Assembly (NCBI GenBank): GCA_010015585.1
Contig: ML975153.1
Reading direction: 5' to 3' (one strand)
DNA length: 64,000 nt
Source: Eremomyces bilateralis CBS 781.70
Lineage: Eukaryota
Made by a program: the position numbers and the translations under genes. The notes beneath the pieces are model-generated. The model was given only the letters and a program-made list of their open reading frames with translations. It was not told where the DNA came from and made no database searches. Of this stretch, positions 25,099-56,311 are shown piece by piece (the stretch's first letter is position 1; every line of letters starts with the position of its first letter).

Positions 25099-26468
25099 AT
25101 GTCGCAGCACGTGGTTGATGCCGTCAAGGCTGCGGCTCAGACACTCCCGCCGATCGATACTCCTGAGTTCGGCCAATTGTTCGATTCCTTCGGCAAAGCG
25201 AGAGTCGTGCTCATCGGTGATGCAAGGTAAGCCAACCAAACGATCTCAAGGAATCCACCTCACTTCCATCCAGCCACGGCACCTCGGAATTCTACCGCGC
25301 CCGCGCGGCCATCACGAAGCGCCTCATCGAAAAACACGGCTTCACCACCGTCGCCATCGAAGCCGACTGGCCTGACGCCCGCTCCATCGACCGCTTCGTC
25401 CGCCGCCAACCCACCCCCGCGGCCCTTAAAGACGAGAAGATCTTCGACCACTTCCCGCGCTGGATGTGGCGCAACGTCGAGGTGCAGGATTTCATCGACT
25501 GGCTGCGCGTGCACAACGAGCGCCTCGACCCCCCCAACCGCACTGGCTTCTACGGGCTGGACCTGTACAGCATGGGCGCCTCTATCCGCGCCGTCATCGA
25601 CTACCTGGACCGCGCGGATCCCGACACCGCGGCCATCGCGCGGGAGCGCTATGGATGCCTGCTGCCCTGGGTCGAGGAACCCGCGCACTACGGCCGCGCG
25701 GCCCTCAACAAAGGCTACGCGCCCTGCGAAGCCGGCGTCGTCCAAATGCTCCGCGACCTCCTCGCACAGCGCATGGACCTCGCCGCCACTGACCCCTCCG
25801 CCTTCACCGACGCTGAATTCAATGCCCGCGTGGTCCGCGACGCCGAGAAATACTACCGGTCCATGTACTACGGCGGCGCGGAGTCCTGGAACCTGCGCGA
25901 CGGGCACATGTTCGCGACGCTCGCGCGGCTGCTGAAGTTGAACCCGGGGAGCAAGGCGGTGGTGTGGGCGCACAATAGCCATGTTGGCGACGCGCGCCAC
26001 ACGGAGATGGGGCGTAAGGGGGAGCATAACATCGGGCAGCTGGTTCGGGAGCATTTCGCGGACCCGACGCAGGTGGCGATCATCGGGTGCGGGACGCACG
26101 CGGGGACGGTGGCGGCGGCGGACGATTGGGGGATGCCGATGCGGATCAAGACCGTAAAAGAGTCGCGGGAGGATTCATACGAGCGCGTGATGCACGCGAC
26201 CGGCGTCCCGGCATTTCTATTGGATCTGCGCGACACGCCGGAGAACGCGGCGGTGCGGCAGGCGTTGGGGCAACAGCGGCGGGAGCGATTCATCGGGGTG
26301 ATTTATCGGCCGCAGACGGAGCTGGGGAGTCACTATGCGAAGGCGATCTTACCGAAGCAGATGGATGCGTTGGTGTGGTTTGATCGGACGAAGGCGGTGG
26401 AGGCATTCGAGACGGCGCAGCCGAGGGGGGATTTGAGCATGGAGGAGACATATCCGTTTGGGTTGTAG
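25099..26468 (+). CDS. Erythromycin esterase (EreA/B-like) family hydrolase, intron 25227-25273
   Basis: Spliced VVLIGDASHGTSEFYRARA...VAIEADWPDA, FPRWMWRN, FYGLDLYS, SWNLRD.HM, VVWAHNSHVGDAR, ERFIGVIYRP.TE..SHY; ends ETYPFGL. Confidence 0.9.
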
Positions 26469-27809: not shown

Positions 27810-28913
27810 ATGAGTAAAATTATTGCGGTCACGGGTGCTACTGGCGCCCAGGGACGTGGTGTTGTTAATATTATGAAGGGGACGGCGGGATGGACAGTTA
27901 GGGCTATCACGAGAAATCCTGAAAGCGACAAGGCCAAGAAGCTGGCTTCAGAAGGCATCGAGGTTGTACAGGCTAGCTTCGACGACGAAGCCTCCCTTGT
28001 CACCGCGTTCCAGGTTCGTTGATAGAGATGCCCAATGCCCATGGCCTCTCAACTTGAAGGGGTTAGAAAATTTACAAAGATTTACAGGGAGTTCATGCCG
28101 TCTTCGCTGTGACAAACTGGTGGGAGCACCTATTCATGGGTAAATCGCAGGACGAGGCGGGAGCTCTGGAGGAGGAGCAGGGCATGACGATTGCTCGCGG
28201 CGCTGCTCAAACGCCGACCCTGGAGCATTACATCTGGTCCACCCTACCTAGCGGCAAGGCTGACTTCCCTGGCAAGCTTGTCACTCCGCACATGGACTAC
28301 AAGGCTGCTGTGGATGCCCGGATCAAGTCTGAGCTGCCCAAGCTGGCGAGCAAGACGACGTATCTGTACCTCGGTTTCTATCCGCAGAACTTCTTCACTT
28401 ACCCCTCCATCAAGCCTGTCCAATATGTAAGCATTGCTTCCGTCTCTGTGATAGACGAGGGTCGATCAGTTCCCTGTTAACATGCGCACACAGCCCCCTG
28501 GATCTGGAACATACGTGCAGATTCAACCCAGCAGGCCGGATGCCAAAGTGCTTTTGGCCGGTGACCTGGACGTGAACCCAGGCATCTGGGTTCGTCAAAT
28601 TCTTGCCAAGGGCCCCATCACATTCGGCAAGTACACCAACGTGGCTCTGGAAAAGTGGTCCTTAGAGCACATGCTGGAAGTATGGTCAGAGGTGACAGGC
28701 AAGAAGGGCATCTTCATCCCCTGCACACTCGAGATCTTTGCCGCACTACATGGCACTGCCGGCTACGAGTTGGGCTTACAACTCAAATACGGCGAGCTGT
28801 GTGACCCTTGGGCAGTGAAAGATAACTTCATAGATGCGAAGGAGCTCGATATAGACCCCAGCGAGGTGGTTGGCTTCAGAGGTGTCATGGAGAAGCTCAA
28901 GCACTTGGCTTAG
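27810..28913 (+). CDS. NmrA-like/HSCARG atypical SDR, 3 exons
   Basis: MSKIIAVTGATGAQGRGVV...VRAITRNPES.KAKKL, then |GVHAVFAVTNWWE, LEHYIWSTL, PHMDYKA. Introns at about 28014-28087 and 28427-28493. Confidence 0.9.
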
Positions 28914-28951
28914 ACGGAAAATTGAATAGAAGCATGTGCTTAGATTATAAT

Positions 28952-31772
28952 TGCGCAGCGTAGCGAAGCAGTTTAAAATCCAACTGGGGCTCCTTTTCCA
29001 AAAAAAAAAGATACACGCTCATTGGTCAGTAGAAAACCCTCTGTGATTGGTCCCAAAATTTACTTGGCAAAATGATTGGCTGACAAAAACGTCCGGAAAG
29101 TTCCGTGTCCCTCTGATCCTTGGCAAAATGATTGGCTGAAAAGTTATTTCATCTCGGAACTCTGTGGACTTCGTCGTTGCCGCCGTCGCTGGGACCTGCG
29201 ATCTCGTTAACTACATGAGCACCTTTTCACTAGTCTCACGGCATCAGACATATCCTACATCCGATTTCAATAGGAAAACAGCAGATTAGAATGTATATAG
29301 GCTTCTGCATATAGGCTTCTACATTCTAGGGGGTTGTTAGGGGAAGTGGGACATAGCATTGTAAGGTATAGACAATTCGACACTATAGAGCAGTCGAGTC
29401 TCACGGACAACGTCAATAGAAAAAAGTAAAGAAAAGGAAAGCAAGATCCTCAAGACATCTCCAGGCATCGTCTATGTTCTTATACCGGCCGACAGTCCTG
29501 AAATCATCTACACAGACACTCGTTGCCTTCATCGTGTACGAAACCACTCAATTCCGAGGAGGAGGACATTCTTGCTTCCTGACAAGAGCTTGCACAAGTT
29601 TGCCCCGGTCGAGATGGTGCGCAGGTCGAGGACCCTGATCGTATTGGCGATCGAGAAATTGACCGTGCATATATCCTTGATGGCATGATCGGTAACTATC
29701 TCGACCTCGACCTCGAGTTCTGGAAGCGGATGAAGGCGGACTTTCCGGCCAACTTAGTAGCCGTTGCTGCTGGTACATATGCTAGCCTAAATGGCAAACA
29801 GAAACTCTGCCAGGACCTCGTCATGCGTCACTTTCACGCCTACCAGGAGCACCGGCCTCCGCCTCAGCTCCTGCTAAGCATCGATGGTAAGGGTGGGACA
29901 GGGAAGACGTACCTTATTATGATCCTTTCCGAGGCGCTTGAGACTGTCGCGAGTGCGATAGGCCATACTACCTCCCCAATCATTCGAGCTGCTCCTACCG
30001 GTGTGGCCGCGCACAATATTTCGGGTAGGACCCTTCATTCTCTATTCCGCCTCACTCCAAAGGCCAGGCAGTACGAAAAGTTGTCAAAGCAAGCCGCTCA
30101 GGCTATTCAGGCTGCATTCAAAGGTGTTCAATATATCGTCATTGACGAGAAGTCAATGGTTGGTTTGAAACTCCTTGCTTGGATTGACCGTCGATGCAAG
30201 GAGATTTGGCCTGATCGTAGTGACCTTCCATTTGGTGGCCTCAACGTTATCCTAGCTGGCGACTTCTTCCAGCTGCCGCCTGTTGGCGAGAAGCCTCTCT
30301 TTACCGGCCAGAACAACATTTCAAAGAACATCGATGAAAGTCATGGCCATAGACTCTACCAAGGCTTCTTCCGAACGATTGAGCTAGACGTTGTTGTCCG
30401 TCAGCAGGGACCTGAGGAGGCAATGTTTCGAAATGCACTCGAAGACTTACGAACCGGGAATGTCACGGTTGATAACTGGCGCCTTCTTGCCACGCGAGTT
30501 GCTTCTACCCTCTCGCCCAGTGACGTCCAAAGCTTCCAAGGTACCCTTCACGTCTACGCCAAAAAGGCAGACGTCATTCAATTCAACCATACACAGATGC
30601 GCGAAAGTGGCCGACCAGTTGTCCTGATGATTGCAACTAATGAGGGGAAAGATGCAGCGAGCGCCACTACCGAACAAGCTGGTAACCTGCAGAACATCCT
30701 CCCTATATCTATTGGTTGCCGTGTCATGCTTACCGAGAATATCTGGACCGAACGAGGATTGGTAAACGGTACTATGGGTAATGTACGCGACATGGCCTGG
30801 GAAGCGGACGTTGAAGATCCCCGGAAGTCGCCTCCTACGGCATTATTGGTTGCGTTCGATAGCTATAATGGTCCATCCTTTCGGGAGGTTAACGGCGAAA
30901 AGCTCGTGCCTATATTCCGGTCCCGCCGAGACTTCGTTCACGGTTCTGTCGCCTGCCTGCGTACCCAGTTTCCATTGGTTCTAGCGTATGCTATCACCAT
31001 CCACAAGAGCCAGGGAATGACACTTGAAAAGGCAGTGTTAAACATCGCTGATAAGCGGGACTTTGCGCCGGGATTAACTTATGTAGCTGTCTCGCGTGTT
31101 AAGTCGCTGAAAGGGGTGTTATTCGAAGAATCGTTTGACCTACCGCGATTGCGCATGCAGAAAACTGCTACAACTCAAGCCAGGAACGATGATGTCGCTC
31201 GGCGGGCATTCTATCACGTCGCGTCCTCCGTACATACTACATACCGTCTACTCCTTGCGCAGCATGGCTAATGTGTCTATACAGGATCCTCAGCAATTCG
31301 CGGTCGGTTTCATGCCACCGCCTCTACGACGTGTTTAACTTCCTGTCCGATCATCCTCTCCACCTCGGAGGTCGTCCCTGCTACTTGCGAGTGAGATCGA
31401 TATACCTACAACAGGGTCTAACCCGTCCGGCACTCAAGGTTCCTGAATGGAGTCTGCGTAGATAGATCAAAATCAACTAGTTATAGTATATCATCTGCTG
31501 TTTATTTCATTATAAGTGGTTTAGCTACCGATGAAACCAGTACTAATAAGCGCGTGTGCTTGACTCTGTTCGCCCAAGGGCAATGATGATACAAGATACA
31601 CAGATGAATGAATCAAGCACACGGTCAGATCAAAAGTCGCTGTGATTGGCCGCAAAGGTTCAGGACTTCATCAGCAAACTGTGACTGGGTAATTATGCTA
31701 TTAAAACTTGGGAGGTTCTGCTCCCTACGCTGCGCACCCCTTGGGTCCATTTATGACCCTCGGCCGTATTTT
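28952..31772 (+). mobile_element. Non-canonical Helitron-like element (Helitron2/Helentron, HLE2 type), Rep-less derivative
   Basis: The 5' end TGCGCAGCGTAGCGAAGCAG (28952) is inverted to a subterminal CTGCTCCCTACGCTGCGCA (31718-31736). This is followed by the hairpin GGGTC-CATTTAT-GACCC (31743-31759) and ATTTT (31768-31772). It encloses a Pif1 helicase ORF. Confidence 0.75.
29685..31271 (+). CDS. Pif1-family SF1B DNA helicase of Helitron type
   Basis: All core motifs present: GKGGTGKT, APTGVAA, TLHSLF, IDEKSM, GDFFQLPPV, VVRQ, GLVNGTMG, TQFPL.LAYAITIHKSQGMT, YVAVSRV. The in-frame upstream extension is broken by a TGA at about 29580. Confidence 0.9.
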   Translation: MIGNYLDLDLEFWKRMKADFPANLVAVAAGTYASLNGKQKLCQDLVMRHFHAYQEHRPPPQLLLSIDGKGGTGKTYLIMILSEALETVASAIGHTTSPIIRAAPTGVAAHNISGRTLHSLFRLTPKARQYEKLSKQAAQAIQAAFKGVQYIVIDEKSMVGLKLLAWIDRRCKEIWPDRSDLPFGGLNVILAGDFFQLPPVGEKPLFTGQNNISKNIDESHGHRLYQGFFRTIELDVVVRQQGPEEAMFRNALEDLRTGNVTVDNWRLLATRVASTLSPSDVQSFQGTLHVYAKKADVIQFNHTQMRESGRPVVLMIATNEGKDAASATTEQAGNLQNILPISIGCRVMLTENIWTERGLVNGTMGNVRDMAWEADVEDPRKSPPTALLVAFDSYNGPSFREVNGEKLVPIFRSRRDFVHGSVACLRTQFPLVLAYAITIHKSQGMTLEKAVLNIADKRDFAPGLTYVAVSRVKSLKGVLFEESFDLPRLRMQKTATTQARNDDVARRAFYHVASSVHTTYRLLLAQHG

Positions 31773-33092
31773 ACCAATGAAAGACAGCTACAGGGAGCTT
31801 AGATGATTCTAAGGGTAAGAATCCTCCTGTTCGGGAATTTTCCCTTGCTCATGATCATCATGCTTGACCCTCTGCCAGAAAAAGAGGAACTGGTGATTCT
31901 AGACAAGATATTTTTATGGTTCTTGGGAGTGCCCTTACACCATATACCTCCAACTTTGACATCTTCTCCAACTGTGCTTTCGAGAGCAGCGTTAAGCTTA
32001 GAGACGACAAGAGCCATAGTCAGAGCCAGTTTTTTATCCGCCGTATCTTCCGTAGGGATATCTCCGCCCTCTAAACCAGTCTAGGGCTATCCGTGCCCAG
32101 ATGGAGATAGCGGAATATGGTCGCCAATATCTCGTTGACAAGTTGAGCAAAAGCTTTAACAACATCTCTATTCCACTGCTCACCTTTCTTGACGGGTTCG
32201 GCTTGTTTCGGAGCATGTACTGTACGATTATGGGTTTCTATCTCTTATTGGCACCTCCCCGCAGCTCAGGCCGTAATTAGAGGCAGAATGTCTTCCCTCT
32301 TGCACTCGGTCCACATGACAGCAATTTCACAGAGTTATTGATGACCCGGCAGATGGCATAACACAGCTTGAACGAGGCATCAATATGCTTATCACCGGCA
32401 AGCAGTTTACGGTCTGCGTCTCTATCATGGCATATATTGGTAATATGCCCCAGCAGCAGACCAGTTCAGGCTTCTGAGCTGTCGCCGCCGAATCTACTTG
32501 CAGGATGCGACTTGTCGAGACCGCCCAACGTGGCCTCCTTGATTTATATCGGAGCCCGCAGCCGGTATCACTATAAAGTTATACGTCAGAGGGCTTCTAT
32601 CCGAAGCAGACCAAACAAGACCCAGAGGAAGTTTACGGCCGGTAAGCTAAGTATAGAAGCAGAGGAACCAGCATTGATGAAACTAAGTCCTGCTCTTGAT
32701 CTCGTCCTCTCCCGACCTCCCGATCCTGTCCACTCTGAACTTAATGGCATCACGAAGCTAACGCACCTCCTGTAGATCGGAGACCTCTTGACAAAAAAGG
32801 CCGCAGCCGAATATGGTCGGTTGCTCCGCTCTTTTCCGTTCCCTTCCGGATAGGGTCGTCTCCAAGCCCCTGAGCACTACATCGGAAGCTACTCCCTTCA
32901 AGAGTACGCCCGATGGAGCGTCATTGGCCCCTGCATGGCTCGAGTCTAGTTACGCGAAGAGTATATCCAGGATGCGTAGTTCGAGGGTGTCCATATTGCG
33001 TTCAAAGTTATTGAGAGAGAGAGAGAGATTCATACGCCCGTCAGGCCTCTCTGCGAGGCCCATGTGGGAAGCCCCTACCCAGCAGACAGCTC

Positions 33093-33170
33093 ATTATTCG
33101 TACGAATATTAGTAAGCGGAAATTCTAAATTTTATTCGTATTCGACTACGAATATTCGTGTCCAGCCCTA
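33093..33170 (-). mobile_element. Solitary hAT-like terminus with CGAATA subterminal repeats
   Basis: The minus strand reads TAGGGCTGGACACGAATATTCGTAGTCGAATACGAATA... with several CGAATA/TATTCG units. A TAGGG start is typical of hAT TIRs. No partner end is seen in the window. Confidence 0.4.
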
Positions 33171-34553
33171 CGTCCCTCAGGCCTCTCTGCGAGGGCCTTG
33201 AGAAGTAATAATAGAGTGATCAGTAATAGTGGTAGATCAGAATGGTGGTGGAGAGGAACTGAGGAAGTCATCATGGTCATGTACACCTAAAGTCACGTGG
33301 TTTAAGTTAGCGAAGGGCAAATATGGACACTGATTCGACCACTCGTGAGTCGCGACTGTCGTGACTCGTGAGTTGTGACAAAGTCGTACCTTACTAATCC
33401 ATCACTCAGAATTGACCACATGTGACTCTATTCCCTGTAAATCGACTCCTGATCTCTCGATCCATACAAACCCTGCAAAAGGCACACGTGTAGGTTTGTT
33501 TCGACGACATGTCCCCTTCCTCCTAAAATTCTCCTCACTTTCGTCCTCCACTCCTCCAATATATTCACCAAATGATGCATGGCCAAGAGGCTAACCTGCC
33601 AAGCAACCGAAGCTTTGTTCCTTCCTCATGCCGTCCCGGAAATGGGGGAATTCGGACCACCACGGAAGCTTCGCGTTGCTTGTAGCTTGTTAGGTGGCCG
33701 GTGCGACGGCGGCGGGTGGGAGTCGTAGCCAAGAAGGGAAGTTGCGCACGCGACACCAGATCTCGTACTCCCATCTATATTACACACGATATAGCAAAAT
33801 GATACTGAAAGGACGAGATGAATTTGGGAGGGCTCTTCGGGGATAGGATCGATTCAGGTACTCCGACTAATCTACTGGAGTATTGCCACTCCCTGGTACA
33901 GGCAAGGTGGTTACTGCTCAACCGATATGCCGTACAAATATCAATAATGATATCCCTATCCCACGTCTCCGGACCCCGGTATATCCCGCCAGAGATCTAG
34001 CTACCGTACAGTAGTGTTCATACCATAGTATGTCTACCGGCATCACGAAAATTCATCCTTAATCTGGTTCGTCAATGCCTCAGCTCTCAACGATCCATCC
34101 ATGGCCCATCTATGGTCCATCATTCGATCTCGAAGGGTCCAACCTGTCGCCGATCCGCCGCCGACCCGCCGCCGATCCACTAATTAAAGAGGAACTAAGC
34201 TCCATCCTAATCGCGCACAGAATCAGGACTTTTTTCTTTGAATACCCCCCCCCAAACTTTTAGGTAAACATGCATCCATCGAGTGCCTCCCTCGAGCATT
34301 CTCGTCTCTTCCCGCACGCTGGTGCCGGATCTCCGTCCGGACTCTTTTCGGGGGTTCTGCTGTGGTTCTATCTTTCCTGTCGCATGGTCCCGCAGTTGGC
34401 CGCTGACTTGCATGGGCCTTACCATTAAAAAAGGTCGTGACCTCCCCCTCCATCGAGTAGGTTGCTACTTGGGATTTTTTCGACCTCCCTGGTCAGACAG
34501 ACCAGTGTATCAACACAGTCCTCAGTCTTCTACTGTCACTTCCTACTGTCATC

Positions 34554-39685: not shown

Positions 39686-42600
39686 TTAGTCCTCCGTCCA
39701 CTGCGGAACCCATTCCATGCCGGGATAGCTCACCCCCCTCATAACCGGCTCATCGTCCTCGCTGTCTTCACGCAGAGGCTGCGAATCAGCCGCAGACGCG
39801 CCCGTCACGGCCGCCGCACCTCCGACGGCGACAGCACCAGCAGCGCTGACACCTGCTGTGGTGCTTAGTGCAGCACTGTTTCCTTTGGCAGGATCTTGGA
39901 AAACATGTGGCGGGCCTGGCGGAAAGTCTTTCGGTGGCGGAGGCGGCGGGGACATGGAGATGGCGAGGGGGTTGATAGGCGACATTGAGGTTGCTGTGCT
40001 GGGCGACATTGGGAGGGGAATGCGATGAGGTTTAACGTTCGTGTTGAGACTCGGTGGCTGGGGTGGGGTCCTTTCCGGCTCCGGGGGAGATGAGTACTGC
40101 TGTGGCGCTGGAGGGGGTTGCGGTGAGTAGGATGAATGGGGTGGTTGCGTGGTGTGCGGGGAAGAATGTGCGTGAGATAGAGAGCGGGGGAGGTTATGCT
40201 GCGCGGGTTGCTGGGGAAGAACGAAGCCATGAGGTTGTTGTGGTAGGGACTGAGTACGTTGAAGGATTTGCTGAGGTTGTGGTGGAGCTTGCGATGGAGG
40301 CGAGGGGGTTTGCTGGAAGCTCATAGGAGGTGGAGGCTGTGATGAAGCTTGCGATTGAGGCGAAGGGGGTTGCTGGTAGCTCGCAGCAGGTGGAGGCTGC
40401 CCATATGAACGCTGCTGTACCTGTTGCTGTTGCTGCTGCATCAGGCGTTGTTGCTGAATGAAGACCTGCTGCTGTTGATATTGCTGGTATTGTTGATACT
40501 GCTGATGCTGCTGCATCTGCGTCAACTGAGCCAACTGCGCCGGCGTATACGTCTGAGGAGGGAAATGCCCCTGATCGCTAACGCGGCGGTACCGCATCGC
40601 CGCCATTCGTGCAGCAATCATTTCCTGACTGGGTCGACGGTTATGCGACATTTCGTCTTCCGACTCTTCAACGCTGGAGGGGAGGCTGATGTTCCACGGT
40701 CGCTCCTGGTGCTGCCCTGGAGTCTCGTTGATGCTTCCCATGCGGATATATGGAGGCATTGCAGCATTCGACCAGCGTTGATTTCCAGGCGCTGGGCCTT
40801 GTCGGGGATCCATGGGTGGCATACCCCCTTGTGCAGGCGATCCGTTAGCGTTATAGAAGAAAGGCCCACCGGACGGCGTTCTTGGGCCAAGGCTAGCGCG
40901 TGAGTCGGGAGAGATGGATGACACCGATTGTGGACCGTACGGCACAGCACCAGGCCCATATCCAGGCGGAACAGGAGGACTATTGCGAATTGGTGCAGGA
41001 CCTGCATATGGAAGGTGCTGCTGGGTGTTTGACGTCAAGGACTGGGTCCTTTCTGCAACCGGTTGCTGTTGACCAGTCGGATCAACCCTACCTAAACCTT
41101 GATCTGGACTCCACGTTGGTGGAGCGTAGTACCCCCCTAGAGGGGGAGGCATTCCCGGATCCTCGAGAATCGGTGGAGGCATCGAATGTGGAAGAGACAT
41201 TGTTCGATTCGAACTTGAAGATTGGCCCCGTTGAGGATTGGATTGGTAGCTTCGCATGTCTTGATATGCAGGACCCGGGCCTATGATGGCCGGACCACCT
41301 TTCTTGGTCATCTTTGACTCTGACCTGCCAAAGAAACTTCCCAGGGCAGAGAACCTTTTCTTCTTCGGAGGATCGGGCCCCAGGCTACTAGAAGATCTCT
41401 GCAGCTTCTTGCCAGACTTGGCATCGGTCGGCTTGGGCTTTTCAACGGGCGGTGGAATCCCTCCTATGATCTGTTGACTGATCGTACGAGTCGGAGAATC
41501 ACCGGCCTGTCCTTGCGTGCTATCCGCCTTGCTGAGCACAGAATCTGCATCAACGCTCAAGGGTCGATTATTGAACGGATTGATTATTCCCGACTTCCGG
41601 AGCTTCTTCTGCGCTTCCTCCTCCTGTCCATCGTCACTCGTAATAGTTGACTGATATGAAGGCTGCCGATTTGATGGTGGAGATACCAGTTCTGGATTGA
41701 TGCGCTGTGGAGTTACCGGCTGTGGTGGAGCAGCAGGTGGTGTCTTGAGTGCGCTCTTAGACTTGAAAAGTTGACCACCGAAACGGGATTTCTGGACTAG
41801 AGGCTCGGATTTCGAGGGCGCTGGCGGACCGACGCCAGGAAGCCGATACTCAGAGGAGTGCTGTCTCGGATCAATAGTCGGCGGAGAGAACGTTTGTCGA
41901 CGAATGTCTTCCGGCGATCTCTGAGCAGGCAGTTGTAGGTTAGGCGGATTGACACCGTGATTCGGTCGCCCTTGCACCGGTTTTCCATGTGCTTGACCAG
42001 CTGGCGGTATGGTTTCTCCCATGTCTCGACCAGCAGGCGGCGTTAAAATTGGAATGGTGCTGATCTGAGGCCCTTGTGGTGATTGATGCTGCTTTGGCGG
42101 CGATGTAGCCAAATTGGGCCCATGCTGGCTTGATCGCTTGGGAGAAGTAAACGATGGTTTTGGCGGCTCATGCTTCGGAGGTGAATGTTCAGAGACCGAG
42201 TCTGATATGGCTTGAAGACCATGCCGTGGAGACACCGTAATCACGTCTTGCGGGACGCCTCCTGTCCTAGGCAGATGTACGAATGACATTGGCCGTTCTC
42301 GACTCGGTGCAGGAGGATGGTAGTCCCTTTCCATGAAACTTGTGCGCACAGGGCTGACAGGGGGTTCAGAGCCCGACACGTCGCGTGGATGGTCGTCATC
42401 TGGATGAATCGTCGAAACATTTGGCGTCGGCTTCATACCGGAACCATCCAGTTCACCAGCACCAGATATGTTGACAGCAGGATCGAGTCTTGGGATCTGC
42501 GCGTCGCCGGCCGCTGCTGTTGGAGTGGGCTCTGATGGAATGGACGGACCTGCAGCTCCTGTTCTAACCTGCTTACTGAAAACCGAAGGAGACCCTTTGA

Positions 42601-44653
42601 CTTCTTGCCATTTCTGCTCGGAACGCGGCTCAGAACTTGCTCCAACCGTCGGCGCAGGCTCGTTATGTCGGCTTCCCTGATACTGCTCCGTTTTCTCGAT
42701 TTCTATAGTCTTCTCGATATCAGAATCCTCTGCACCAGTAGACTCATTGTCCGAAGGTTGCAATTCCCGGTGCTTCTCGATGGAAGGCCACGAGATAGCG
42801 TCACTCGAGGTATCCTTCTCCCAGCTTGCGGCAGTTGATGCTCGCGAAATTCTGCGACGATCGGGCGAATCATCTTTCGTTGCCCCTCCCGCGCTTTGCA
42901 CCTGAGACTCATATAATATAGTTGCCCGTGGAGTCACCAGGTCATCTTCCAACATCGGAGAAGCCGAGGCGACGACGATTTGCTCTACCGGGCCTCCGTC
43001 TGGTTGTGAGCTACTGACAGCTTGCGCTTCCTTGCTTGGGAATGATGGACCTGTAGGAGTAACGGTATCCGACCCGTCGATCGGTACCGCCGCTTCCACG
43101 TTGGTTCCAGAGCCATCAGTGGTTATCTCATTTAGCAATTTCTGTTGCTTCTTGTCTTCTTCCAATTTCTCTTGTTCCCTCTCTTCGTCTGCTTCTCGCT
43201 GCACCTTTCGTAACTGCTCAACATCAATGCCCTCGAAAATGTACCCTTGAGAATGCCTCACAACACTCTCAAGTAGTAGTTTTTGTCTCACATTATCCAG
43301 ACTCCCCGCCTCCTGGTCCGGTGCCTCGCTTGCGCTATCACCAGTCGTATCCCTCATCCGCGAAGGTGACATATCGCCATCGTTGGTTGGCATATCTGCT
43401 CCATGACTCTCTCGCTTGAACGTTGATCGTGCTGGGCTTGGCAGGACTCCCAATTGATGAATTCCCTCAACTTCCGTTATCTTCGGAGGTGGCATTAACG
43501 TGTCGAAGCCATGGTCACCCTGACCTCCAAATGGAGCAACAGTGTGTGGATTTCCCGTGGGAGTCTTCGGCGGCTCATCCCATAATGCGACGTCTGACAC
43601 CTTTGGTGCCGCCGCGCCGGAAACTGTCATGGCCATGGTGGACTGTCGACGAGATGGCGGAACCGCTTCTGATGTTGAGGATGACTGCTGAGGTGGCTGG
43701 CCACTGTGATTATTAGGATATGCCACTTGAGGGCCTTGCTTCGTCGGATCCAGGGCAGGTTGATGGTGCATTAAGCTTCCTTGTTGCCACTGTGGGATCT
43801 GAAATTGCACTGCGGTGCCAAAGGCTTGAGTGTCTTGCTGTTGGGGAATAGCAGGACCATGTAACTGCTGAGGGCCGGGAGGACCCGATGTCGTAGGGAA
43901 CGGCATAGGCTGTTGGCTGGCGAGGTTGAAGTTCTGCGACAGCGGTTGCGTGCCTTGAATATGAGGTAGCTGGGGAGCATCTGTCGACTCTAAAGCCATG
44001 CTGCTCGGTCTGCTGGATCTGCTCCCGATGCTTATGATACTGGAAGCTGTGGACCGGCCTCGACGGAACATGTTCCCTATATCCCATTTACCGCTCCGTC
44101 TCTTAATCTCTTTACTATCAGCTAGCGAGCGAGACTGGGACTGCGGTCGAGAACCGGATTCGGAGGGTTGGATCGATGATCGACGGCGGTTTCTGATAGA
44201 GCCTAAGACGTTGGACTGGGACGATGAGGCGGATTCAGTGGGGATAGTGGGGAGTGGGGGTGGAGGCATGGTATAGGGCTGGGTAGAAACACGATGGTAA
44301 GCTGCGGGGATAGGCTGCGGAGGGTATTGGAATGGTGGAGGAGATGGAGGGCGTTGTTGGGGTGCGCTCGGTTGGCTGTGAGACAGTTGGGAAGAAGCAG
44401 ATTGAGCGTGGGGCGCTGGCGTCTGGGGTGCAGGGGAAGTTGGGCTAGGGTCCAACCGTTGAGGCAACTTGTTGGACTGGTCCGCGGGATTGGCAATGGA
44501 AGTACCATTCCCCAATGCTGGGGGGGCTGGAGACGCATTAGCGAGGGGAGAATGGCCGGGTGCCTGGCCACTTTGCCCGCTATGGAGCGACCATGTGGAT
44601 GGCGTGCCTAAATAAGAGGCATCTCCGGCAACAGAAGAACGAGGGGAAGAGGT
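39686..44653 (-). CDS. Large Pro/Ser/Gln-rich disordered coding exon, probably the 3' exon of the upstream gene
   Basis: The frame is open from the acceptor GTTAAC..TGCTTAG|ACC (44653) to the stop at 39686. It contains a poly-Q tract (~40420-40520), KKKRFSALGSFFGR and the terminus DDEPVMRGVSYPGMEWVPQW. Confidence 0.75.
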   Translation of the reverse strand, partial: TSSPRSSVAGDASYLGTPSTWSLHSGQSGQAPGHSPLANASPAPPALGNGTSIANPADQSNKLPQRLDPSPTSPAPQTPAPHAQSASSQLSHSQPSAPQQRPPSPPPFQYPPQPIPAAYHRVSTQPYTMPPPPLPTIPTESASSSQSNVLGSIRNRRRSSIQPSESGSRPQSQSRSLADSKEIKRRSGKWDIGNMFRRGRSTASSIISIGSRSSRPSSMALESTDAPQLPHIQGTQPLSQNFNLASQQPMPFPTTSGPPGPQQLHGPAIPQQQDTQAFGTAVQFQIPQWQQGSLMHHQPALDPTKQGPQVAYPNNHSGQPPQQSSSTSEAVPPSRRQSTMAMTVSGAAAPKVSDVALWDEPPKTPTGNPHTVAPFGGQGDHGFDTLMPPPKITEVEGIHQLGVLPSPARSTFKRESHGADMPTNDGDMSPSRMRDTTGDSASEAPDQEAGSLDNVRQKLLLESVVRHSQGYIFEGIDVEQLRKVQREADEEREQEKLEEDKKQQKLLNEITTDGSGTNVEAAVPIDGSDTVTPTGPSFPSKEAQAVSSSQPDGGPVEQIVVASASPMLEDDLVTPRATILYESQVQSAGGATKDDSPDRRRISRASTAASWEKDTSSDAISWPSIEKHRELQPSDNESTGAEDSDIEKTIEIEKTEQYQGSRHNEPAPTVGASSEPRSEQKWQEVKGSPSVFSKQVRTGAAGPSIPSEPTPTAAAGDAQIPRLDPAVNISGAGELDGSGMKPTPNVSTIHPDDDHPRDVSGSEPPVSPVRTSFMERDYHPPAPSRERPMSFVHLPRTGGVPQDVITVSPRHGLQAISDSVSEHSPPKHEPPKPSFTSPKRSSQHGPNLATSPPKQHQSPQGPQISTIPILTPPAGRDMGETIPPAGQAHGKPVQGRPNHGVNPPNLQLPAQRSPEDIRRQTFSPPTIDPRQHSSEYRLPGVGPPAPSKSEPLVQKSRFGGQLFKSKSALKTPPAAPPQPVTPQRINPELVSPPSNRQPSYQSTITSDDGQEEEAQKKLRKSGIINPFNNRPLSVDADSVLSKADSTQGQAGDSPTRTISQQIIGGIPPPVEKPKPTDAKSGKKLQRSSSSLGPDPPKKKRFSALGSFFGRSESKMTKKGGPAIIGPGPAYQDMRSYQSNPQRGQSSSSNRTMSLPHSMPPPILEDPGMPPPLGGYYAPPTWSPDQGLGRVDPTGQQQPVAERTQSLTSNTQQHLPYAGPAPIRNSPPVPPGYGPGAVPYGPQSVSSISPDSRASLGPRTPSGGPFFYNANGSPAQGGMPPMDPRQGPAPGNQRWSNAAMPPYIRMGSINETPGQHQERPWNISLPSSVEESEDEMSHNRRPSQEMIAARMAAMRYRRVSDQGHFPPQTYTPAQLAQLTQMQQHQQYQQYQQYQQQQVFIQQQRLMQQQQQQVQQRSYGQPPPAASYQQPPSPQSQASSQPPPPMSFQQTPSPPSQAPPQPQQILQRTQSLPQQPHGFVLPQQPAQHNLPRSLSHAHSSPHTTQPPHSSYSPQPPPAPQQYSSPPEPERTPPQPPSLNTNVKPHRIPLPMSPSTATSMSPINPLAISMSPPPPPPKDFPPGPPHVFQDPAKGNSAALSTTAGVSAAGAVAVGGAAAVTGASAADSQPLREDSEDDEPVMRGVSYPGMEWVPQWTED

Positions 44654-45133: not shown

Positions 45134-48100
45134 TTAACCGACCTTGTCTCCGCCATGTTTGAACCGGTTCTTCGACTTCGCGAGCAAGCCCTTTGCTCCC
45201 GTGGTAGCCTTCCCGCCCAAAATTCCAGCCTTGCCACCCAAAATGCCAGCACTGTGCAACAGGTCTTTCCCAATCTGTTGCCCCTTGCCTTCCGATTGTC
45301 CAGCCCCATCCCCGCCCGTCGGGGACGAGGAGGCGAGATTGCTGGATACTCGGCGGCTGGCGGAAAAGCTAGGACCTGGCGTCTGACCGCTTGTACTACC
45401 CCCGCCTGTCAGGGCGCCGAGACCGAATCTTGACAATGAAGGACTGCTCTTATGACCTCGTTCTACGCCAGGCGGGGTAGGGAGTGTATGCCCGGCCATC
45501 GGCCCTGACTGATTAGCCTGGGATTGCCAGACTGAGCTGGCCAAACTTTGATGCTCCGGATAAGTTGCGACGGTCTCGTCAAGCCAGGACCCGATTCCCG
45601 TGTCGGTAGACGCGAATTGCTCGCGAGTATTGCTGTACGCCTGGATTCGGTCTGGCGTGGACTTGATTGCCAAGATTTCACGGAACGTTGGGGGCGCCTT
45701 CGCAGGTGCACTGTCGCGGTTCGCGGATGGTTGAGGTAGCGCACCTCCCACGGAGGTTGGCGTTGGGATATCATCCGCGTTCTTCTCAGAGGGATGCGGG
45801 GTAGAACCATGAGGCGCAGGCAAGATTTCTTTGTCGTTGTCGCTGTCCTTTTCGATGTTTGACTGGACACTAACGAGATGTAGGCCATCATCGCTCTTCA
45901 TCGGAGAGACAGTGCGACTTGGATCGCCAGCTTCCTTGCCCAGGCTGGTGTCGCTTGCCGACAAGTTGCTGGGGTGAGATCCACTCATAGCGCTCAAGGG
46001 GCTTAGGGGCTCGCGTTCGTGTACGGGAGTCTGTGAAGCTCCTGGCGGAAGGCTGACTTCCACGGATGGGGGCTCGCGGTCAGACGGTGCAATGAATGCG
46101 CTCTTCGGCGTAGGTTGAATCGAGTCTAGGCTATCAAATGGAGTGGAAGCGCCTATTTGAACAGGCGTCTCTCCAGTCCGTTCTTGGAGTATACCCGATG
46201 CTTGAGCTTGTGGCATGGTAGGTTGGCTGGGCGCTGACGATACCGTTTGCGTAGGTTTCGAATCCGTATCAGGCGAGAAAGGTGGTGGGGTGAGCCCAAG
46301 GTCAGCAACGTTATCAAATGACTGCTCCCAGCTAAATCGTTTTTTCAGAAGCGGGGGGTTGGACACTGCAGGCTCGTCCTTCACAGGAACTGCTGGAGGC
46401 AGTGCCTCCTGACTTGGAACATTGACACCAAGGCCATGAGGCTCAGGCGGCTTTGACTCAATGCTCGGACCAGTTGCCCAGTAGCTGTCATACTCGCTAG
46501 GAAGCACGGAACTGTCCCTGTTGGTGTCATGAGCTGGACCTGCTGCAGAAGGATCGAGATGCGTCGGAACGGCAGCAGGCTGGCCAGGAGAATAGTGAGA
46601 CTCTGCATGGGAATCAAAAGAACTGAGCCGCCGCTCAATCTCATCGGTCAACTGGTCACTCATGTTTCGGACATCCTTCGGTGAGCCTGTATCTTTCTCC
46701 GGAACAGATGGCGGCTTCTCATCGTCGCCATTGTTCGAATGTTTGCTGAGACCAAGTGCGCCTACGACGCCAGCCCCAAGGGCAGATCCGGCCGTGGCAA
46801 GAGTTGAAACCGGATCTTCAGTGAGCTTGATCTTTTTCCGCTCTTTCTCTTCCTCCTGAATGAATTTGTAGGCATCATCCGAGAGACTTAAACCGCCGGT
46901 TGATGTAGTATGCTCTTCCACTGGACCCTCCCTGACAACTGCGTCAATGGCCGAAGGGTCTGAGCTTAGGTTATCCCGACTTCCAGTCCTGCTGCTGGAC
47001 TGGTTCGTTGTATAGCTCATCCAGGCCCCTGGAACGCGTGGACGTGCAGTTTCTTCGGATGCTTGTTGCACTTCCGGTTGAGTTTGAGTAGGCTCAGGTC
47101 TGCTTGGTGGTCGACTCGGTGGCCTACTGTCTGGCCGCTCCCATGAATCGATGCTGCTGACTGATCCCCGTTTCTCGTACTGCACGGCAAGATCTCTCAC
47201 GCGACTCTTCGTTGGACTTCCAGCTCGACTGCTCGACTGGGAGTCCTTGACCGGACTGACCGATCTGCTACGAGGACCTGAACCGAGAGGTAGGATAGAT
47301 GGAACTGGTGCAGGAAGTGGTTTGTCGAGATCAGTTGCGCGGTGTGGTTGTTTGGAAACATCTTGGGGTTCCACGGGCGACGTGGTATCCAATTCAGCCT
47401 CACTTGGCTTAAAAAGCTCTTTCTGTGGTGCTAACGCGGGAGAACGGGCAGGTGAATTGTTTGGACTTGGGGTATTCAAATCTCTTCTATAGCCCGGAAC
47501 AAATTCAGCACTGGCGTGCCTTGAGTGACTCGGGGTATTGACCGGACTCGGTTTTCTGGGTAGAGTGAATTGGGCAGCTTTGGGAGTCTCTAGGCTTTCA
47601 TGGCGTTGATGTAGAGGCAACACTTGTGGCTCTTCCCGTCCGTCCTCTGGAATTGTCGGGTGCTTGGAAGTAGGATGGTAAGTATCCAGGGATGCAGGGA
47701 GCTTGCTAGTGATCGGAGAAATCTCAGACGTGCTGACAGTATTGCTTCGAGACACGTCGGTATCAGTATCAACGGCGGATTGAGGTTCTGCGGCAGTGAA
47801 CGCAGTGTCAACTGCTGATCGGAACCCTAGGGAAGGCGTGTGCTCGAGCGGCTTCGCTGCCTGATTAGAGATAGGCTGGTCAGATTGTGGGTTTGGAGGC
47901 AAGGCAGACTGCGCTGATCGAGAATCAACTGGTGACCCTTCTTTCCATCCACTGTTGGACCAAAATTCATCACTGAAATTCGACTGCGGTTGCTCCCATT
48001 GAGGGAGTGCATATGGGTCCGGATTTGATGAGGTAGTCCCGGATGTAGGGGGAATAGTGGCCGAGATCTGGATTCCGGTAGGCTGTTCACGTAGGGTATT

Positions 48101-49300
48101 GGCGTCATACTCTGGGAGATATTCGCTCTTACGCTCCTCGACCCTTTCCAACGCTGGAGTTCCACGGCGGTTCTGGCTTTCGCTTCTGTCCCTTGGCCTT
48201 GGCTCCACTTTCATAGTTTCGCTGACCGTTCCTAGACTGGGTCGCCTTCCGGGACTTCGACCAAGGCTCTCGAAACTCGTCCGTTCCTTTGGACCCTTTC
48301 CGCTGGGTGCAGGTGACGCAGCGTCTTCGCCAGATCTACCACCAACGGAATCAATACTTGGACGCTCTGAATCCATACTGGCCCGCTCCTTTGCTCGTTC
48401 TTCTTCCATCCGCTTGTAGATGTCGGATGGACGGATAAATGGAAGAGGTTTTGCAGGATTACTCGGCGATGTAGCCTGTTGACTTGAATGAGTAGGTGGC
48501 GCCTGTGACGAGCCTTGCTCGCTCTGTGGTGCAGGAAACGGCCCAGGAGCTTGTGGTGCCGGGGAGTCCTGTTGGCTTTTGCTCACGCTACTCCTCCTTG
48601 GAGGGAAACGCGCCTGACCAGGCGAGTCGACTGCGCTCGGGGGCATTGATGGTGATGGAGAGGGGCGTAGAGGTTGAACCATAGCTGAGGGAGAGAAGTC
48701 TCTTCGATGTTCAGGGTTCACCGATGAAGGTGCATCACTGACAACTGAATGAGCAAGCGACGCTGATCGAGACTCAGCTTTAGCGCTGTTCCGCGAATCC
48801 GCAGGCCCGTATGCGGCCGGACTAGAAGTTATCGTGTCCAGTTGTAGAGGTGGTTGACCAGGTCCTAGGTGTCGCGGAGGATTCGCACCCTGGGGAAGCT
48901 GTGGAAAGCCCTGTTGATTTGGAACTGGCGCGGGATAACTACCCGTGGAGAACTTCCGCTGTTCCTCACCGGCATCAAATGAACGCTTCCGGGCAGGTCC
49001 AGGAGGCCCTTGATGACCCTCGTAAGGACCCTCTGGGTTTGTGAAACTGCGCGTTTGGCCCTGGCCTGGATTGAGACCTTGGCCTTGCTGTCTCAAACCT
49101 GTTGGAACGGCTGGTATTGCATTTTGTGCAGCCTGACTTGCGCCATATTCATCGACCTCATCATAATCACCCCAGTCATCCCCATCATATGAGTATGACT
49201 TTGCTTCCACCCATCGTTTCGTCTTCGCACGATTAACGTTGGTTTTGAATGACGGAGGTTGCCCGGAAGGGAATGGATTTGGCCGCCGTTGATCACTTTC
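45134..49300 (-). CDS. Large Pro/Ser-rich fungal protein of unknown function; start codon uncertain
   Basis: Open from the acceptor GCTAACTTTAG|GAA. Ordered blocks FKTNVNRAKTKRWVEAKSYSYDGDDW, KPLPFIRPSDIYKRMEEER, LPSEYDSYW, FREILAIKS..DRIQAY..TR.QFA..DTG...W sit among low-complexity sequence. Confidence 0.8.
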   Translation of the reverse strand, partial: ESDQRRPNPFPSGQPPSFKTNVNRAKTKRWVEAKSYSYDGDDWGDYDEVDEYGASQAAQNAIPAVPTGLRQQGQGLNPGQGQTRSFTNPEGPYEGHQGPPGPARKRSFDAGEEQRKFSTGSYPAPVPNQQGFPQLPQGANPPRHLGPGQPPLQLDTITSSPAAYGPADSRNSAKAESRSASLAHSVVSDAPSSVNPEHRRDFSPSAMVQPLRPSPSPSMPPSAVDSPGQARFPPRRSSVSKSQQDSPAPQAPGPFPAPQSEQGSSQAPPTHSSQQATSPSNPAKPLPFIRPSDIYKRMEEERAKERASMDSERPSIDSVGGRSGEDAASPAPSGKGPKERTSFESLGRSPGRRPSLGTVSETMKVEPRPRDRSESQNRRGTPALERVEERKSEYLPEYDANTLREQPTGIQISATIPPTSGTTSSNPDPYALPQWEQPQSNFSDEFWSNSGWKEGSPVDSRSAQSALPPNPQSDQPISNQAAKPLEHTPSLGFRSAVDTAFTAAEPQSAVDTDTDVSRSNTVSTSEISPITSKLPASLDTYHPTSKHPTIPEDGREEPQVLPLHQRHESLETPKAAQFTLPRKPSPVNTPSHSRHASAEFVPGYRRDLNTPSPNNSPARSPALAPQKELFKPSEAELDTTSPVEPQDVSKQPHRATDLDKPLPAPVPSILPLGSGPRSRSVSPVKDSQSSSRAGSPTKSRVRDLAVQYEKRGSVSSIDSWERPDSRPPSRPPSRPEPTQTQPEVQQASEETARPRVPGAWMSYTTNQSSSRTGSRDNLSSDPSAIDAVVREGPVEEHTTSTGGLSLSDDAYKFIQEEEKERKKIKLTEDPVSTLATAGSALGAGVVGALGLSKHSNNGDDEKPPSVPEKDTGSPKDVRNMSDQLTDEIERRLSSFDSHAESHYSPGQPAAVPTHLDPSAAGPAHDTNRDSSVLPSEYDSYWATGPSIESKPPEPHGLGVNVPSQEALPPAVPVKDEPAVSNPPLLKKRFSWEQSFDNVADLGLTPPPFSPDTDSKPTQTVSSAPSQPTMPQAQASGILQERTGETPVQIGASTPFDSLDSIQPTPKSAFIAPSDREPPSVEVSLPPGASQTPVHEREPLSPLSAMSGSHPSNLSASDTSLGKEAGDPSRTVSPMKSDDGLHLVSVQSNIEKDSDNDKEILPAPHGSTPHPSEKNADDIPTPTSVGGALPQPSANRDSAPAKAPPTFREILAIKSTPDRIQAYSNTREQFASTDTGIGSWLDETVATYPEHQSLASSVWQSQANQSGPMAGHTLPTPPGVERGHKSSPSLSRFGLGALTGGGSTSGQTPGPSFSASRRVSSNLASSSPTGGDGAGQSEGKGQQIGKDLLHSAGILGGKAGILGGKATTGAKGLLAKSKNRFKHGGDKVG

Positions 49301-54082: not shown

Positions 54083-56311
54083 ATGGTTGCCAATGGACTG
54101 GCTCGGCCGGATGCGCTCGGGTTAAATGAAGTTCTATCCACGTCACACCACGCCTTCCTCCAACCATCCCGAGACATATACGACACCGCACTCAACGAGG
54201 CACGAGCGTACATCGACCCACTAGCATCGGCAATAAGCGCTGCTCAGCAGGAACGAGAGAAGCAATATTACGCCGAGAAGAAGAAGAGGAAACGAGGGGA
54301 ATATGAGGATGCGGAAGCACCCCATGATGTGCTGCGTATGAAGCGCATCCATGTCGACGGCTTCGATGTCGAGCAGATATGGGGTCAAGCTCAACGAGTT
54401 TTGAAGGCTGCGGCGGATGAATGCGAAAAGGACATTGAAAAATTGGAGCAAGATGCTGAGCTGCATGGTGATATGGACGCAACTCTCGATGGCATGGGAA
54501 GCAGTGGCGAAGACGAGGAGATGTTCAGCGACAATGTTCTTGAGGATGGCGTTGAGAGCGGTTCGGATGAATTGTCCGATGACCTGCTCGAGGACGTCGA
54601 AGAAGAAGACGAGGCCGAAGAGGTGGACGATCTAGAGGACGAGGATGTCTCTGAAGATGATGAAGAGGACCGGGCAATGTATGGTATTGACGAAGACGAG
54701 GACGGTGAAGCTGGGGAGGCTGACGGTGCCGGTGGCAATGCCTACGAAGAAGACCCCAATGGATTGAATGATGGTTTCTTCTCCATCGAAGACTTTAACA
54801 GGAACTCGGCATTCCTTGAACGACAAGATGCTCGCGCAGACCCAGATGATGGTGCCGCTAGCGACGAAGAAGAGGTTGACTGGGCGGCCGACCCTCTCTC
54901 TCAGCCTCTTCCAAAGCAAATCAAAGGAGACGGGTCCGACGCAGAGGATGACGAGGATGCAGAGGGGGATGAGGGCTCCGAGGAAGGAGAAGATGATGAT
55001 TCCGAAACTGGCCCTACTTTTGGCAACGTCGACCTCTACGCACCCGAGGGCGCGAGCGAGGATGAAGATGAAGTGGAGCAAGATGAAATGGAGGGTATGG
55101 ATGATCTATCGAATACGAACAACATCATGTACAGCGACTTCTTCGCACCACCTCCGAAGAAGTCCAAGAACAAGCGTGGCCGACCGCACCCACACAACTT
55201 CCCGGCGAAAGATCCAAAGAATCAGGGTACTGCAAAAGCTAGCCTACAAGGCGAGGAGGACGATGTGAAACGCGCCATGTCTGCGGTGCATCGAGATCTC
55301 TTCTCCGATTCGGACGAAGCGTCCGATGCCTCTGATGCGGAAGCACTCGACCCTGCCGATCCGGTGTCAAGACGTAGCGTGCACGAGCGTCGCCAAGCTC
55401 AAATCCTTACAGAAATTCGCAAGCTTGAGGCTGAGAACGTGACAAAGCGGTCATGGCAGCTTTCCGGTGAGGCCAAGGCAGCTGCCCGACCCATGAACAG
55501 CTTGCTCGAGGAAGATCTGGACTTTGAGCGGGCGGGAAAACCAGTTCCTGTGATCACTGCTGAAACTACCGAGGAAATCGAGGCGCTAATCAAACGGCGT
55601 ATCCTTGCTGCAGAGTTTGACGAAGTCATTCGCCGAAGGCCCGAGGACATGATGGGTCCATCGGTGCGAAGAGGGCGGTTGGAGAACGTCGACCAAACAA
55701 AGGATAAGAAGGGTCTTGGAGAGTTGTACGAAGAGGAACACTTACGCAACACGGACCCCAACTTCGTCGACGCCAAGGATGAATCCCTCAAGAAGCAGCA
55801 TACGGAGATCCAGACCCTATGGAAAGATGTCAGCTCCAAACTTGACTCGCTCTCAAGTTGGCACTACCGCCCCAAGGCACCCGAACCCCAAATCGAAGTG
55901 CGTGTCGACGCGCCCACCATTTCCATGGAAGACGCCCGACCTTCCGGAGAAGTTGGAGCGAGTATGCTGGCACCGCAGGAGGTCTACAAGGCTGGCGAGG
56001 CGGCGAATAACGCCAAGGATTTCGAGGAGGTGGCGACACGCGGTGGTATGCCGATCGTGAAGAGTGAGATGAGCCGCGAGGAGAAGAAGCGGCGACGGAT
56101 GCGGGAGAAGGAGCGGGCGAAGAAAGCGGGCGCAAATCCTGTCGTCAACGGCAAGGTGAAGGCGCGGAAGGAAAAGGAAGGGCAGATGTTGGGGTCGTTG
56201 AAGCAGGCGGGTGTCAAGGTCATTGGCAAGAAGGGCGAGTTGAGAGATGTCTCGGGGAAAGCGGTTGCGGAAGATGCGCCGAGGCCGAATCCATCGGGGT
56301 GGAAGCTTTGA
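54083..56311 (+). CDS. MPP10: U3 snoRNP protein Mpp10
   Basis: DGFDVEQIWGQ, long acidic tract, GLNDGFFSIEDFN, YSDFFAPP, WQLSGEA.AAARP.NSLLEEDLDFE, KLDSLSSWHYRPK, LAPQEVY. Confidence 0.95.
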   Translation: MVANGLARPDALGLNEVLSTSHHAFLQPSRDIYDTALNEARAYIDPLASAISAAQQEREKQYYAEKKKRKRGEYEDAEAPHDVLRMKRIHVDGFDVEQIWGQAQRVLKAAADECEKDIEKLEQDAELHGDMDATLDGMGSSGEDEEMFSDNVLEDGVESGSDELSDDLLEDVEEEDEAEEVDDLEDEDVSEDDEEDRAMYGIDEDEDGEAGEADGAGGNAYEEDPNGLNDGFFSIEDFNRNSAFLERQDARADPDDGAASDEEEVDWAADPLSQPLPKQIKGDGSDAEDDEDAEGDEGSEEGEDDDSETGPTFGNVDLYAPEGASEDEDEVEQDEMEGMDDLSNTNNIMYSDFFAPPPKKSKNKRGRPHPHNFPAKDPKNQGTAKASLQGEEDDVKRAMSAVHRDLFSDSDEASDASDAEALDPADPVSRRSVHERRQAQILTEIRKLEAENVTKRSWQLSGEAKAAARPMNSLLEEDLDFERAGKPVPVITAETTEEIEALIKRRILAAEFDEVIRRRPEDMMGPSVRRGRLENVDQTKDKKGLGELYEEEHLRNTDPNFVDAKDESLKKQHTEIQTLWKDVSSKLDSLSSWHYRPKAPEPQIEVRVDAPTISMEDARPSGEVGASMLAPQEVYKAGEAANNAKDFEEVATRGGMPIVKSEMSREEKKRRRMREKERAKKAGANPVVNGKVKARKEKEGQMLGSLKQAGVKVIGKKGELRDVSGKAVAEDAPRPNPSGWKL

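Follow-up and report, generated by a model that had tools for sequence, protein, structure and literature searches.

The element considered here occupies positions 28952–31772 (2,821 bp, + strand) of a 64-kb stretch of contig ML975153.1 of Eremomyces bilateralis CBS 781.70 (GCA_010015585.1), which in its full length of 64,000 nucleotides is referred to as the window. With a probability of roughly three in four, we read it as a solitary, non-autonomous internal-deletion copy of a Helitron2/HLE2-type fungal Helitron resembling FoHeli1 and FoHeli2, whose coding part, to judge from sequence comparison, corresponds to the last third of a RepHel transposase, i.e., its C-terminal helicase portion. 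A non-autonomous deletion derivative that kept both ends had already been proposed in a first-pass annotation, and it remains the best reading because the ends are FoHeli-like, the helicase is Helitron-derived, Rep is absent, and there is no repeat-induced point mutation (RIP). Read in this way, the element is a clean, single, Rep-deleted relic of Helitron2 type in a little-sampled fungal lineage, and as such a transposon remnant of a common sort rather than a new element type.

The 5′ terminus, or left terminal sequence (LTS), consists of a 12-nt arm of an asymmetric terminal inverted repeat at 28952–28963 (+), in which the first nucleotide is T and the first six nucleotides are palindromic. 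Its exact reverse complement (12/12) forms the 3′ subterminal arm at 31725–31736 (+), just where the first-pass annotation had placed an inverted copy of the 5′ terminal sequence ahead of ATTTT; with one mismatch, the repeat runs to 28966 (14/15 when extended). The 3′ arm ends 36 nt from the 3′ terminus (47 nt counted from the start of the arm), where the right terminal sequence (RTS) closes with ATTTT at 31768–31772 (+), followed by A at 31773. The left flank is TAAT (28948–28951), which fits the TNAT target side published for FoHeli1/2-type insertions (PMC5148889). The insertion, as seen in this single copy, has TAAT before the 5′ T and A after ATTTT without a target-site duplication, and inspection of the flanking sequence revealed no direct repeat abutting the element ends. 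According to Chellapan et al. 2016 (PMC5148889), FoHeli1/2 and the neighbouring Chaetomium Helitrons likewise have an initial T and an asymmetric inverted repeat of 12 bp, the 3′ arm of which is located 38–51 bp from the terminus, which reads ATATTTT; their target is TNAT on the left and A/T on the right. For HLE2 elements in general, an asymmetric terminal inverted repeat of 11–18 nt is described (HELIANO), and insertion takes place between T and T.

The likelihood of such a combination arising by chance was estimated with a composite scan on either strand, which required TNAT, a 12-mer with initial T, the reverse complement of this 12-mer no more than 12 kb away, and, 15–60 nt further on, the end of an ATTTT that precedes A or T; 200 first-order Markov simulations of the window served as the chance expectation. 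The composite signature occurs once in the window, at exactly the coordinates of the element, while at least one occurrence was obtained in 2 of the 200 simulations (55/200 when the TNAT requirement was dropped), in keeping with the Helitron2/HLE2-type ends that the first-pass annotation had recognized. We take both ends of this single copy as real, since the composite is rare in the simulations and brackets the sole Helitron helicase of the window.

A 3′ hairpin had also been claimed, and it is indeed present as a 5-bp stem with a 7-nt loop at 31744–31760 (+), between the inverted repeat and the terminus, where it forms part of the minimum-energy fold of the 3′ 73 nt; yet this fold (−7.6 kcal/mol, z −0.54) is no better than that of shuffled sequence, as 56 of 200 shuffles equal it. 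Similarly, no notable hairpin was found at the 5′ end when compared with shuffled sequence (z −0.19). Because neither end folds better than its shuffled counterparts, we base nothing on the hairpin.

An 8-bp direct repeat (28938–28945 and 31797–31804) was considered as a cut-and-paste target duplication and rejected as a chance match. With one copy 7 nt to the left of the 5′ end and the other 25 nt to the right of the 3′ end, it does not abut the element, no inverted repeat is found in the sequences just inside it, and by our own arithmetic the chance that two ~60-nt flanks have an 8-mer in common is about 4%.

The interior of the element is dominated by an open reading frame (ORF) of 528 aa (29685–31271 including the stop, +), which begins 733 bp from the 5′ end, as against the ~730 bp of the first-pass annotation, and which is predicted to encode, in full, the Pif1-family helicase domain that belongs to a Helitron RepHel transposase. 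The Pif1 assignment holds, since the ORF matches PF05970 PIF1 with an E-value of 1e-27 (Pfam). Relatives were taken from 5.8 billion protein clusters in two length classes, 290–924 aa and 925–2640 aa, of which the best 120 each were kept. The best of the longer relatives score 500–545 bits at 46–53% identity, the range over all 120 being ~396–544 bits and 41–53%, and PF14214 (Helitron_like_N, the Rep domain) is present in 111 of these 120, most of which also contain DUF6570. The best 120 shorter relatives have similar scores, and PF14214 is found in none of them; many come from contigs of 2–6 kb and are likely fragments. Solved Pif1 structures of cellular or bacterial origin (PDB) reach 77–128 bits against the ORF, and Helraiser, the HLE1 transposase of a bat, reaches 63 bits. 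In a FastTree phylogeny of 220 helicase domains, the ORF adjoins a 10-tip clade that includes the RepHel proteins P0121, P0122, and P0134 together with Alternaria and Pyrenophora proteins, on a long branch (0.52) with a local support of 0.44 and of 0.93 at the next node up. On the strength of the RepHel bit scores, the PF14214 domain in its relatives, and its placement in the tree, the ORF is identified by sequence as a Helitron-derived helicase and not a cellular Pif1. Most fungal Helitrons have been reported to group with Helitron2 (Chellapan et al., PMC5148889).

Neither length class of the protein collection yielded a relative with more than 53% identity. Mpp10, encoded at 54083–56308 of the window, has an entry of 100% identity in the same collection, and the 528-aa helicase ORF is without an entry; the source annotation apparently omits it, and the transposon ORFs of the source genome may be unannotated. 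With even the helicase ORF of the window itself not represented in the collection, the lack of a close relative counts for little. The next-best matches of Mpp10, which are 50–54% identical, come from the Dothideomycetes Rhizodiscina, Lepidopterella, Glonium, and Mytilinidion, and because of these matches the host is, by its protein sequence, an isolated Dothideomycete-like ascomycete and not Fusarium.

The helicase domain is well preserved. The frame is open over 562 codons (29583–31271), with its first ATG at 29685. Of 109 columns with a conservation of 90% or more across 219 relatives, 106 show the consensus residue in the ORF, and 88 of the 219 relatives retain it in fewer of those columns than the ORF does. 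The C-terminus ends about where those of the relatives end. Upstream of the ATG the picture differs from the intact Pif1 of the first-pass annotation, which holds for the helicase domain (106/109) and fails for the RepHel-homologous coding sequence that precedes it, as this is broken by a TGA. The tblastn alignments of RepHel proteins extend past the ATG on its upstream side by 140 bp or more, as far as 29523–29559, and one reaches 29466; in this linker coding remnant (29523–29684, +), an in-frame TGA at 29580–29582 stands opposite a conserved Trp in all five alignments that span it (P0123, P0124, P0125, P0128, and P0135; seven inspected), which a single base change in a Trp codon would explain. 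Opposite the ATG at 29685 the relatives have a His in the interior of the protein, and the start is not a conserved one. The starts of the 120 short relatives are scattered without a cluster at the ORF's Met, and since they have no common start there, their N-termini give no sign of a conserved helicase-only isoform. Accordingly, "intact" applies to the helicase domain only, and the ORF as a whole is, as far as its sequence tells, a remnant. The RIP indices (TpA/ApT 0.81; (CpA+TpG)/(ApC+GpT) 1.12), judged by thresholds that we take to apply, indicate no RIP and agree with the earlier description of an unRIPed copy. The GC content at third codon positions (0.54, towards the lower limit of the range of 0.49–0.85 for the ORFs of the window) is uninformative on residence time.

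The absence of Rep, which had been noted from the lack of visible motifs, extends to the entire window. When 15 RepHel proteins were compared with the 64 kb by tblastn, matches were obtained only at 29466/29544–31346, i.e., in the helicase, and a tblastn of 28800–29760 with the same proteins at E-values up to 50 gave nothing consistent upstream of ~29466 among the matches listed. A hidden Markov model (HMM) of the N-terminal DUF6570 and Rep region (1124 positions, built from 60 of the 81 available RepHel N-termini) was run with all filters off and found no Rep in the 2232 six-frame pieces of the window; its single marginal match (E 0.0012) is the N-end of the helicase ORF itself. All three forward frames of 28952–29520 are closed by many stops. 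In P0121, the closest relative, DUF6570 occupies residues 309–453 and Rep 578–773, and because homology to the window begins at residue 1164, about 1,160 N-terminal residues, or ~3.4 kb, appear to be missing in comparison with this protein. An autonomous Helitron carries a RepHel with an HUH/Y2 Rep (PF14214), which is absent from both the element and the 64-kb window; Helitron ends and Hel are present while a complete RepHel is lacking, which corresponds to a non-autonomous Helitron as defined by HELIANO. No second copy or fragment of the element was found in the window by blastn.

In the Helitron cycle, Rep nicks the 5′ end, Hel unwinds the DNA in the 5′→3′ direction, the 3′ signal terminates the process, and a single-strand circle is formed; insertion occurs at a T-rich site without target duplication. 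As the copy has no Rep, it should be able neither to nick its own 5′ end nor to join DNA and should therefore be incapable of starting rolling-circle transposition. Its parent would have been an autonomous element of the 6-kb class, similar to FoHeli1 (PMC5148889), from which DUF6570 and Rep were probably lost through an internal deletion that preceded or followed insertion at the present site; its junction would have to be inside the 5′ non-coding part (28964–29522). The copy would now be immobile by itself and would depend for any movement on a cognate RepHel provided in trans. That the helicase frame is still open would best be attributed to youth and the absence of RIP, with no need to invoke selection: the 12/12 repeat and the 106/109 retained residues fit a young copy, and the perfect terminal repeat in particular argues for youth, since a host gene would have no need of it.

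Several observations weigh against this interpretation, and some of them favor other explanations. Inverted repeats of 12 nt are by themselves frequent in the window (84 pairs within 12 kb, compared with a simulation average of 48), the 5-bp hairpin is unremarkable alone, and the ends rest on one instance and a pattern from the literature. The placement of the helicase with HLE2 rather than HLE1 is tentative, being drawn from its grouping with fungal RepHel proteins. A young copy implies a recently active parent, and no protein with more than 53% identity was found, although this is weak evidence for the reason given above; moreover, 106 conserved positions out of 109 in an open frame of 562 codons would also be expected under purifying selection. 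The abundance of 12-mer repeats, the single available copy, and the unremarkable folding of the 5′ end are what would be seen in a 5′-truncated or rearranged Helitron fragment, in which the 3′ end is real and the 12-nt match at 28952 is a chance one that does not mark the true 5′ terminus. We regard this as unlikely because the 3′ end dictates the position of the 3′ arm, whose complement begins at the T after TAAT as published (PMC5148889), the full composite arose in only 2/200 whole-window simulations, and RepHel homology stops ~570 bp inside 28952, which leaves a plausible 5′ non-coding leader. A cellular Pif1/Rrm3 gene, with no transposon involved, would account for the PF05970 match and the helicase motifs, and the first-pass annotation had held that a grouping with such proteins would speak against a Helitron; the ORF groups with RepHel proteins, scoring 520–545 bits against RepHel transposases versus 77–128 against solved Pif1 helicases, its homology enters the RepHel linker upstream, and Helitron-type ends flank it, so that this explanation, already refuted, is scarcely credible.

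The remaining alternatives both assume that the helicase half was kept functional alone between working ends, as one part of a two-part system with Rep elsewhere or as a future host Pif1-like gene. The open frame of 562 codons, its 106/109 positions, and the intact ends are compatible with a stand-alone functional helicase; a nonsense codon in the frame upstream, a start that is not conserved, and the absence of a close relative argue against it, and we would give the idea little credence. Its first form, a mobile Rep-less element that expresses its own helicase and is served by a Rep or RepHel from another locus of the same genome, derives support from the lack of RIP and from FoHeli derivatives that are non-autonomous and recently transposed (PMC5148889). 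It is improbable given that the 64 kb contain no Rep and no other copy, that no relative exceeds 53% identity among the two length classes from 5.8 billion protein clusters, and that the conserved Trp upstream is a stop while the start is internal, not conserved, and not common to the short relatives; in addition, RepHel is described as one polypeptide (HELIANO), and a narrow literature search gave no Helitron with Rep and Hel as two parts. In its second form, a Helitron-derived helicase would be retained by the host as a Pif1-like gene and the ends would be leftovers. The open frame with conserved motifs, present as a single copy amid housekeeping genes, is compatible with domestication, and PIF1 and helicase domains derived from transposable elements are frequent in candidate fungal fusions between host genes and transposable elements (PMC10799480). 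However, a perfect 12/12 repeat and an ATTTT end would be useless to a host gene, the intactness of the copy argues for youth and not for long retention, an orthologue of similar length with more than 53% identity was not found, and the gene is absent from the genome's protein set, all of which makes domestication very improbable. The split system and the domestication that the first-pass annotation had entertained are thus possible only at low probability: no Rep in the window, no relative above 53%, a Trp changed to a stop, and an ATG at an internal His all speak against them.

Comparison with published systems places the Rep-deleted relic close to the Helitrons of Fusarium oxysporum and Chaetomium globosum. 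It shares with FoHeli1, FoHeli2, and the Chaetomium elements a 12-nt asymmetric repeat with a 3′ arm tens of nucleotides from the terminus, a TATTTT end, an initial T, and insertion between TNAT and A (PMC5148889); with the Chaetomium groups it also has in common the lack of a strong 5′ hairpin and the overlap of the repeat with a short palindrome (PMC5148889). The 5′ terminal sequences quoted in the text of that study for FoHeli1/2 nevertheless differ from that of the element (PMC5148889), the helicase is only 42–45% identical to the F. oxysporum and Chaetomium proteins, and, unlike these systems, the element has a Dothideomycete-like host and is without Rep. FoHeliNA1 and FoHeliNA2 are non-autonomous deletion derivatives with both ends (PMC5148889). 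FoHeliNA2, derived from FoHeli1, has likewise kept both ends while losing part of its coding sequence, and depends on a transposase in trans (PMC5148889); however, it is 1,929 bp long and present in several copies in several genomes (PMC5148889), whereas the element described here measures 2,821 bp, is found in one copy, and has its whole helicase domain open.

Helicases without Rep have been reported from other fungi. A Helitron-like transposable element of Botrytis cinerea Vv3 encodes a Pif1-like helicase with no Rep or nuclease detectable in the description given (bioRxiv 10.1101/2022.03.07.483234). It is 15.5 kb long, carries captured genes, and occurs in 33 complete or incomplete copies at subtelomeric positions (10.1101/2022.03.07.483234), in contrast to the small element with clean ends of published type and no cargo that is found once in a core region. 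Hel domains whose ORF contains no Rep in Rhizophagus clarus (Heringer & Kuhn 2021, PMC8788227) resemble it in having the helicase alone. With FoHeliNA2 and such helicase-only Helitron remnants in print (PMC5148889, PMC8788227, 10.1101/2022.03.07.483234), the designation as an undescribed element was overstated. Cellular Pif1/Rrm3 proteins share the helicase superfamily-1 fold family and motifs with the ORF; unlike RepHel proteins, they score about four- to five-fold lower in bits, lack homology to the linker, and are not flanked by Helitron ends.

ORFs of this kind are easily labelled "ATP-dependent DNA helicase PIF1" in annotations and counted as host genes, and in the present case the ends and the upstream RepHel remnant show the ORF to be a transposon relic. 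The pattern of FoHeli1/2-type ends (TNAT, 12-nt asymmetric repeat, ATTTT) is extended to a Dothideomycete-like lineage, which adds support to the published view of a wide distribution of this end type across Pezizomycotina, and with the two ends as a seed the parent family can be sought in the source genome. If it were true that the helicase is expressed and selected, it would offer a natural test of whether Rep and Hel are able to function as individual proteins, but nothing here points in that direction.

The non-coding parts of the element contain repeated motifs. The 5′ non-coding part (28964–29522, +), with stop-filled forward frames and no RepHel homology, carries three TGATTGG motifs and a pair of 24-nt direct repeats (29063–29086 and 29119–29142, 96% identical), within which two of the TGATTGG copies fall; the 3′ non-coding part (31272–31724, +) carries a fourth. 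The + strand of the window has nine occurrences of TGATTGG, the complement of the CCAAT box, and four of the nine fall in the non-coding ends of the element in the same orientation (29044–29135 and 31643–31649). A 34-nt stretch at 29024–29057 is, moreover, 76% identical in direct orientation to 31623–31656. These motifs and direct repeats may serve the element as parts of a promoter or as repeats to which proteins bind, or they may reflect a pattern recognized post hoc.

The surroundings in the 64-kb window are a gene-rich core region with Trs120/TRAPPC9, Mpp10, RNase HII, dehydrogenases, and carriers. An NmrA-like ORF has its stop 38 bp ahead of the element, which occupies a TAAT^A site. This upstream NmrA-like gene consists of two adjacent + frames (28136–28480 and 28482–28913), of which only the first piece matches PF05368 (profile positions 82–164), so that an intron or a frameshift near 28480 is possible. 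On the 3′ side, the ~2.8 kb at 31773–34550 have a longest open frame of at most 137 codons on both strands and may be intergenic or contain an intron-rich or non-coding gene. Two adjacent long open frames on the minus strand, 39689–44653 and 45137–49300 (1655 and 1388 codons), are rich in Pro, Ser, and Gln (P 13–16%, S 13–15%), had no Pfam match at an E-value of 1e-5, and presumably encode large disordered proteins. At 25221–26465 (+), a full-length ORF of the erythromycin-esterase family matches PF05139 over profile positions 1–358 of 358 with 434 bits.

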